Below, piece by piece: positions 36,585-37,210 of a stretch of DNA of 64,000 nucleotides. A program made the translations under genes and the position numbers. Under the pieces are notes generated by a model. The model ran no database searches, was not told where the DNA came from, and was given only the letters and a program-made list of their open reading frames with translations. The DNA is from Escherichia coli (GTDB taxonomy: Bacteria; Pseudomonadota; Gammaproteobacteria; Enterobacterales; Enterobacteriaceae). The DNA is taken from the NCBI RefSeq assembly GCF_041248615.1, contig NZ_CP158426.1. One strand, given 5' to 3'. Within the stretch, counting starts at the first letter, position 1. The number at the start of each line of letters is the position of its first letter.

Positions 36585-37106
36585 ATGAAACATTCATTTG
36601 AAGTAAAACTTGCCGCTGTAAATCATTACCTGGCTGGTCATGCAGGCATCATTTCTACGGCAAAACTCTTTCAACTTTCTCACACCAGCCTCTCACACTG
36701 GATTAATCTTTTTCTTCTTCACGGTCCTCGGGCACTGGATTGCAGACACAAGCGTAGCTATTCTCCTGAAGATAAACTTTGCGTGGTTCTTTATGCTCTC
36801 GGGCATTCTGAGTCTCTACCCCGGGTAGCTGCCCGGTTTAACATTCCCAGCCACAACACGGTTAAAAACTGGATAAAAGGCTACCGCAAATCTGGTAATG
36901 AGGCCTTTATCAGGCGCAGGAAGGAGAAAAGCATGACCCGTTCTGATGATACCCATGAAAACGAGGCAAACATGACGCCGGAAGAGATGAAGAATGAGCT
37001 GCGTTATCTTCGCGCAGAAAATGCATATCTGAAAGCCATGCAGGAGCATCTCCTGGAAAAAAAGCGCCAGGAGCTGGAGAAAAAACGAAAGTCATCCGGA
37101 GCCTGA
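36585..37106 (+). CDS. IS3-family transposase OrfA (HTH, leucine-zipper-like C-terminus)
   Basis: MKHSFEVKLAAVNHYLAGHAGIISTAKLF...; ends shortly after the A_AAA_AAG slippery heptamer at 37058-37064. Confidence 0.85.
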   Translation: MKHSFEVKLAAVNHYLAGHAGIISTAKLFQLSHTSLSHWINLFLLHGPRALDCRHKRSYSPEDKLCVVLYALGHSESLPRVAARFNIPSHNTVKNWIKGYRKSGNEAFIRRRKEKSMTRSDDTHENEANMTPEEMKNELRYLRAENAYLKAMQEHLLEKKRQELEKKRKSSGA

Positions 37107-37210
37107 GGTGCGGACACTGCCAGTCTGACCTGTTAAAGGCTGCAGGGCTGGCCAGAAGCACGCTGTACTACCAGCTGTCACTGCAGAAGGCTAAGGACAA
37201 GTATGCTGAT

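Follow-up and report, generated by a model that had tools for sequence, protein, structure and literature searches.

The heptamer A_AAA_AAG at positions 37058-37064 of the window (the whole stretch of 64,000 nucleotides of Escherichia coli DNA that was analysed, from contig NZ_CP158426.1 of assembly GCF_041248615.1) very probably serves for programmed -1 ribosomal frameshifting in the insertion sequence IS1397, of which the window contains an intact copy. The IS1397 frameshift signal is already known, being both annotated in RefSeq and published; for the recoding field, nothing is added here on its existence. For genome annotation, orfA and orfB are best regarded not as a broken gene but as a single IS1397 transposase gene that is intact, probably active, and expressed through recoding.

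By its sequence, the element is IS1397, a member of the IS150 group of the IS3 family. Copies in five RefSeq genomes match it with 100% identity over 1432 bp, and those in more than 1300 records with at least 99%; in all of them the CDS bears the name "IS3-like element IS1397 family transposase". Identity was judged against these RefSeq-annotated copies. The following features of the IS3 family are present: (i) overlapping ORFs, with orfB in the -1 frame; (ii) an rve domain with a DD(35)E triad and K/R at E+7; (iii) TG...CA terminal inverted repeats; (iv) a target duplication within 3-4 bp (GTTC); and (v) a length, 1432 bp, within ~1.2-1.5 kb. The terminal inverted repeats measure 25-26 nt (TGAACTG...CAGTTCA). 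The catalytic triad consists of D295 (GAT 37466-68), D355 (GAT 37646-48) and E391 (GAG 37754-56), with 35 residues between the second D and the E, and K398 at E+7. The fused 449-aa protein matches Pfam HTH_28, HTH_21, rve (E = 3.8e-21) and rve_2, and scores 387.6 bits against NCBIfam transpos_IS3 (cut-off 160). The coordinates of all features are collected in Table 1.

Table 1. Features of the IS1397 copy and of its insertion site, in window coordinates.
Feature	Position	Strand	Basis and remarks
Left half of split REP/palindromic unit, ..GCCGGATAAGGCGTTC	36513..36533	.	Arms 36513-36531 / 37970-37988, 84% complementary
Left 4-bp target duplication, GTTC	36530..36533	.	Letters read; removal of the IS and one GTTC rebuilds an intact REP
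Complete IS1397, 1432 bp	36534..37965	+	Full-length 100% identity to RefSeq-annotated IS1397 copies; inverted repeats at both ends
Left terminal inverted repeat, TGAACTGCACCCCAAATGTTGGACA	36534..36558	+	85% complementary to right end; TG start
orfA, 173 aa, HTH DNA-binding protein, frame 0	36585..37106	+	ATG 36585 or GTG 36576; exact protein on record, in a cluster of 2287 members; Pfam HTH_28 and HTH_Tnp_1
OrfAB, 449 aa (predicted fusion)	36585..37064 joined to 37064..37933	+	Heptamer junction
orfB frame (-1 relative to orfA), open through the heptamer; HTH_21 and rve catalytic domains	36998..37933	+	Frame reading; domain search
Putative vestige of ancestral slip position, TAT CTG AAA GCC (Y L K A), non-slippery in IS1397	37026..37037	+	Homologous place slippery in IS150 and ~70 relatives
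Candidate SD-like GGAG, 12 nt upstream of heptamer	37042..37046	+	Present in 6 of 7 subclade members
Invariant 14-nt block around heptamer, GGAAAAAAAGCGCC	37055..37068	+	Longest invariant run of the full-length 7-element alignment
Slippery heptamer A_AAA_AAG, very probable -1 frameshift site	37058..37064	+	Phase checked; sole junction with a recorded protein; in phase in 6/6 subclade relatives; published cluster A_AAA_AAG_5
Predicted hairpin, 38 nt, 3 nt after heptamer; extended form 37064-37111	37068..37105	+	Folding; size, spacer and first stem equal the published 38 nt, 3 nt and 4 bp
Weak secondary slip candidates in the predicted hairpin loop: G_AAA_AAA (37079-85) and in-phase A_AAG (37088-91)	37080..37091	+	Fusion products not on record
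Right terminal inverted repeat, ending ...GGGGTTCAGTTCA	37941..37965	+	Paired with left end; CA end
Right 4-bp target duplication, GTTC	37966..37969	.	Letters read
Right half of split REP/palindromic unit, GTTCACGCCGCATCCGGC..	37966..37988	.	Same repeat pair; palindrome rebuilt in silico

The letters of the window from 37050 to 37068 are CTCCTGGAAAAAAAGCGCC. Within them, AAAAAAG is read by orfA through the codons GAA (37056), AAA (37059) and AAG (37062), that is, in X_XXY_YYZ phase, and orfA ends 40 nt further on, at the stop TGA (37104-37106). In the -1 frame, no stop occurs between 36998 and the one at 37931-37933, and this frame overlaps orfA by 109 nt; when the two are fused at the heptamer, a product of 449 aa results, not interrupted by any stop. 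A preliminary description of this DNA had named the element IS1397, had located the heptamer in the orfA frame just ahead of the orfA stop with orfB open across it in the -1 frame, and had recognized in this the canonical IS3-family OrfAB arrangement. All these statements are borne out by the letters, the codon phase, the 0/-1 overlap of the two frames, the 100% nucleotide identity to RefSeq-annotated IS1397 copies, and the fact that RefSeq marks identical DNA as a "programmed frameshift"; likewise, the heptamer is free of mutations relative to the reference copies. The bare string AAAAAAG is ordinary in the window (19 occurrences on both strands versus 15.5 expected), so that the unlikely part is the in-phase copy inside the overlap, the chance of which is about 0.004 (36 codon positions x 1.2e-4). 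In E. coli genes, in-phase A_AAA_AAG is strongly avoided (z = -10.1) (Sharma et al., 2014, PMC4066793, Table S3). A further AAAAAAG, within orfB (37860-37866, read as CAA AAA AGA), does not have the phase that tandem slippage requires and is probably of no importance.

In RefSeq, identical DNA is annotated as a two-piece joined CDS which equals 36585..37933 of the window, and the same insertion between yphB and yphA in NZ_OW967178.1 carries the "programmed frameshift" annotation as well. The position of the junction was examined by means of exact protein look-ups with 23 candidate fusion junctions, namely those at the heptamer, at a second A-run, and at 21 further codon boundaries between 37028 and 37103. 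The heptamer is the sole junction of the 23 that gives a protein on record; for the 22 others (37028-37103 and the second A-run), no exact product is on record. Furthermore, the junction ...LLEKK/APGAGEK... (the slash marks the point of fusion) is common to all 13 of the listed 449-aa variants. The OrfAB of identical DNA bears the accession WP_106425742.1 in RefSeq, whereas the heptamer-junction product was returned as WP_151276648.1. Since the products of the other 22 junctions are absent from the record, this mismatch is not accounted for by another junction; it may be a matter of accession bookkeeping.

According to the proposed mechanism, most ribosomes would read orfA to its stop and release the 173-aa DNA-binding protein, while a minority would slip back by one base at the heptamer, where the two lysine tRNAs on AAA-AAG would re-pair on AAA-AAA. 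The slipped ribosomes would then continue in the orfB frame to yield the 449-aa OrfAB, which would unite the N-terminal HTH domains with the DDE core and carry the predicted junction peptide ...LLEKKAPGAGEK. The internal SD-like GGAG, located 12 nt upstream, would pair with 16S rRNA and probably boost the slip, as would, probably, the hairpin that starts 3 nt downstream. The frequency of frameshifting would set the level of transposase. The sequence data show the anatomy of the site, its conservation at the nucleotide level, the intact state of the copy and its recent insertion; slippage on the ribosome, its efficiency, and the roles of GGAG and hairpin are what we infer.

In the literature, IS1397 orfA corresponds to the frameshift cluster A_AAA_AAG_5, which comprises 59 genes (Sharma et al., 2014, PMC4066793). 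In this cluster, an SD-like element and a hairpin are each scored 1.00 (found in 100% of the genes), and the hairpin is described as having 38 nt, a 3-nt spacer and a 4-bp first stem (PMC4066793). The same authors stated, short of demonstration, that -1 frameshifting in IS1397 "can be safely inferred", and noted that the divergence within the cluster is too low for a conservation test (aln_div 0.02) (PMC4066793). In E. coli, A_AAA_AAG by itself causes 0.29% frameshifting, a value that rises to 4.3% when the IS911 stimulators are present and to 39% in combination with the IS3 pseudoknot (PMC4066793). The window copy and the published IS1397 are the same element, with the same heptamer, SD-like element, hairpin dimensions and REP target, and no sequence difference between them. 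An Rfam scan of 36400-38100 at permissive E-values returned no frameshift element, but chance matches only (mir-2208, sR38).

Relatives at intermediate distance were reached by means of an OrfA protein search followed by contig look-ups, which led to a subclade with 53-59% protein identity. A tblastn search against plasmids found no relatives between 99% and 55% identity, and a scan of species-representative genomes found nothing above 58% outside E. coli. The DNA of six subclade members (L085-L090, including an Erwinia element) shows 63-67% nucleotide identity to IS1397, and in every one of the six the heptamer occurs in phase, at precisely the position that it has in IS1397. Two members have a stop codon of the -1 frame directly ahead of the heptamer and, in consequence, any shift upstream of it is excluded in those two relatives. 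When the seven elements are aligned (1.35 kb, 29% invariant columns), the longest invariant run, of 14 nt, is the one around the heptamer, and the next measures 8 nt. At the slip site, 7/7 elements use the same synonymous codons (GAA, AAA and AAG), whereas the adjoining codons vary. The slip site is, hence, conserved beyond coding need, and the 14-nt block supplies the conservation test that the published low-divergence analysis could not make. Farther away, among 72 loci with an OrfB 50-58% identical, the overlap contains an in-phase A_AAA_AAG in 62 cases, A_AAA_AAA in 8, and neither of them in the remaining 2.

The position of the slip site within the gene differs between IS1397 and the rest of the group, as compared across loci L002-L081, L085-L090 and L092. 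In IS150 and the more distant relatives, the heptamer lies within the OrfA motif E-N-A-Y-L-K-K-L, as TAT (T/C)TA AAA AAG; IS1397 retains A-E-N-A-Y-L-K but reads CTG AAA GCC there. IS150 and ~70 relatives have the slip site at the Y-L-K-K position, whereas in IS1397 and its subclade it comes 27 nt (9 codons) further downstream. This 27-nt displacement is observed directly, and it may be new to the literature. ENAYL is separated from the conserved start of OrfB (VIRSLR) by 20 residues, a spacing that is unchanged in IS1397. A GGAG is present 12 nt upstream both at the ancestral site in Bacillota relatives (ATG GAG AAT) and at the IS1397 site (CAG GAG CAT). The reading to which we incline, with some reserve, is that the cassette migrated: the ancestral Y-L-K-K site would have been abandoned, and the full cassette (heptamer, GGAG and hairpin) rebuilt 27 nt downstream, with the linker length kept. 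If true, this would be a natural case in which, under selection for a set OrfA:OrfAB ratio, a recoding signal changed its place and was reassembled by convergence. The 27-nt move, together with the strongest nucleotide conservation of the element, offers a modest illustration that it is the frameshift that is selected, more than its exact position.

Alongside the established heptamer, the upstream GGAG and the downstream hairpin are plausible stimulators. The GGAG spacing of 12 nt in IS1397 falls within the range of 6-17 nt at which an SD-like element is stimulatory (PMC4066793). Folding predicts for the 38-nt hairpin a minimum free energy of -12.4 kcal/mol (z = -3.4), and for its extended form -17.6 kcal/mol (z = -3.25); against its role, the 3-nt spacer is shorter than the 6 nt listed for IS911, IS150 and IS2. 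A natural variant, G to A at 37098 in the allele represented by the E. coli type strain ATCC 11775 copy (L082), replaces a U-G pair by U-A and is compatible with the predicted structure. Among the subclade relatives, the folds are no better than those of shuffled sequence (z from +0.4 to -2.1), and RNAalifold on the 7-sequence alignment gives a weak consensus with a penalising covariation term (+0.82) and no informative double changes. The CRGG motif is present twice in that alignment, which renders the pairing register ambiguous. As far as folding models indicate, the hairpin is supported in IS1397 itself and not across its relatives. The GGAG also codes for a conserved Q-E, and the invariant CCUG that forms the 3' arm of the hairpin also codes for the conserved Leu of the OrfB xLR motif; as both are coding, the conservation of neither can be credited to RNA function alone.

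Other pairings are predicted around the site. The stretch CUCCUGG (37050-56) has two alternative partners, CAGGAG on its upstream side (37041-46, -8 kcal/mol) and CCAGGAG on its downstream side (37067-73, -11 kcal/mol), and the downstream pairing (37047-56/37067-76) puts the heptamer in a loop. Such alternative folds could occlude the SD-like element or the foot of the hairpin in untranslated mRNA. The upstream hairpin (37041-37055) and the pairing 37047-56/37067-76 were considered as regulators and discarded, as a ribosome positioned on the heptamer covers or has already unwound both; these folds may matter in untranslated mRNA only.

Several known systems can be set beside IS1397. IS150, listed as a proven case of A_AAA_AAG -1 frameshifting (cluster A_AAA_AAG_37; PMC4066793), resembles IS1397 in its 173-aa OrfA, its 0/-1 overlap, the A_AAA_AAG followed by a hairpin, and a DDE OrfB that is ~51% identical. 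The two differ in the place of the slip, which in IS150 falls in the Y-L-K-K-L codons and in IS1397 9 codons later. They also differ in the surroundings of the heptamer: IS150 has a strong predicted hairpin (-18.5 kcal/mol, 6-nt spacer) and lacks an SD-like element, whereas IS1397 has the upstream GGAG and a predicted hairpin that is weaker and closer. Enterobacterial relatives from Klebsiella pneumoniae ATCC 13883, Kosakonia, Enterobacter and Shimwellia (L014, L019, L029 and L052), with an OrfB ~53-55% identical, share the in-phase A_AAA_AAG in the overlap; unlike in IS1397, their slip position is still the ancestral Y-L-K-K one, the GGAG is absent, and strong predicted hairpins (-16 to -23 kcal/mol) are located 7 nt downstream. 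The Klebsiella pneumoniae ATCC 13883 element is presumably ISKpn1. The three-part layout of SD-like element, A_AAA_AAG and downstream structure is shared by IS1397 with IS911 and dnaX, the stimulators of IS1397 being candidates. IS911 belongs to a different IS3 subgroup from IS1397, and in the cellular gene dnaX the product is shortened by the shift rather than extended. Besides IS1397, IS911 is the only one among the IS clusters that was scored with both an SD-like element and a hairpin (PMC4066793).

The same 449-aa protein might be produced by transcriptional slippage, in which RNA polymerase would stutter on the A7 run (37057-37063) and add one A; the message would then read GAA AAA AAA GCG (E K K A), and the product would be indistinguishable from that of the frameshift. 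Among the known users of transcriptional slippage, IS elements form the largest group (PMC1088944), and the mechanism also occurs in one group of the IS3 family (PMC6211511). Nevertheless, productive slippage of this type, like selection against it, has been reported for runs of 9 A and sometimes 8 (PMC1088944), whereas IS1397 has 7 and its outer relatives 6. The A-run is invariant in the IS1397 subclade, as would also fit polymerase slippage, but what is kept in IS1397, the subclade and the ~70 relatives is the exact X_XXY_YYZ phase, which matters for tRNA re-pairing and not for the polymerase. The fixed 12-nt spacing of the SD-like GGAG is, likewise, a ribosome-specific feature, and A_AAA_AAG is experimentally shifty on E. 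coli ribosomes. A polymerase-based origin of OrfAB is regarded as very unlikely.

It is also conceivable that ribosomes shift mostly further downstream, at the A6 run GAG AAA AAA C (37080-85) or at A_AAG (37088-91), with a linker ...KKRQELEKK(T/RK)VIRSLR as the result; this is considered extremely unlikely. Neither of these sites is a full X_XXY_YYZ heptamer, since the P-site tRNA would re-pair on GAA; what they do hold are in-phase slippery tetramers (37082-85 and 37088-91), a type of site that reaches about a tenth of the level of the best heptamer and needs a strong stimulator (PMC4066793). An SD-like AGGAG and a GGAG are found just upstream (37069-79), the -1 frame is open at both sites, and the conserved OrfB homology begins only at 37091; yet the sites themselves lie in the predicted hairpin loop, with no structure downstream. 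Moreover, the secondary A-run is broken (ACA AAA) in the relative L088, while the heptamer is invariant, and the corresponding fusion products are absent from the record. Finally, the split between the two frames could be an ordinary inactivating mutation accompanied by the heptamer by chance, in line with the commonness of the bare AAAAAAG in the window and with the existence of decayed IS1397 copies, such as the type-strain copy annotated as "frameshifted". The lesion of that copy is a different one: it is a pseudogene through a 1-nt deletion at the equivalent of 36730, and its heptamer is intact. In addition, 70 of the 72 relatives, as well as IS150, show the 0/-1 split together with an in-phase heptamer, no nucleotide stretch of the element is more conserved than the heptamer site, and the identical copies at different loci, with a mostly empty target site, imply an active transposase. 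A non-programmed origin has, on these grounds, a practically negligible probability, and the programmed -1 ribosomal frameshift at the heptamer is the preferred reading.

According to PMC1525189, IS1397 targets the centre of the REP/palindromic units of BIMEs; the REP/palindromic-unit target also appears in the titles of the papers by Clement et al. (1999) and Wilde et al. (2001, 2003) that are cited there. In the window, the REP between yphB and yphA is split by IS1397 exactly at its centre. Deletion of the IS plus one GTTC in silico restores the perfect REP palindrome GCCGGATAAGGCGTTCACGCCGCATCCGGC, and three further IS1397 copies that were examined all lie within REPs, with duplications of 3-4 bp. 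The uninterrupted yphB-yphA REP site was found in 5292 of 5426 complete E. coli genomes, and the IS1397 junction at this place in 33 of the 5426. As compared to the published IS1397, the window insertion represents a rare polymorphism of the yphB-yphA site. Identical IS1397 copies are also present at other loci (e.g., panM-livJ), and the window copy carries no lesion relative to the other copies that are 100% identical. The empty site in most genomes, the junction in only 33, and the identical copies elsewhere point to a recent transposition of the window copy; IS1397 at this site is, then, a rare and recent insertion. The earlier view of the copy as intact and potentially active is upheld by the 100% identity to copies elsewhere, the DD(35)E triad with its K, the TG...CA repeats, the 4-bp duplication, and the target empty in the great majority of genomes. 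Judging from its sequence, the copy is probably active, and an active REP-targeting IS would be a source of genome polymorphism in this strain.

Some of the 33 genomes with the junction differ by 1-2% in the flank. Independent insertions into the same yphB-yphA REP are possible. The type-strain copy (ATCC 11775) is found downstream of rrf, where it adjoins the 5S rRNA gene, and the allele that it represents is widespread, being the best match over the frameshift region in about 1100 genomes. Upstream of the IS in the window, yphB (aldose 1-epimerase, 35635-36507) is broken into ORFs of 86 aa and 190 aa. IS1397 is not the cause of this split, because it sits beyond the end of yphB; in a genome identical across the locus, RefSeq also calls yphB a pseudogene ("internal stop").
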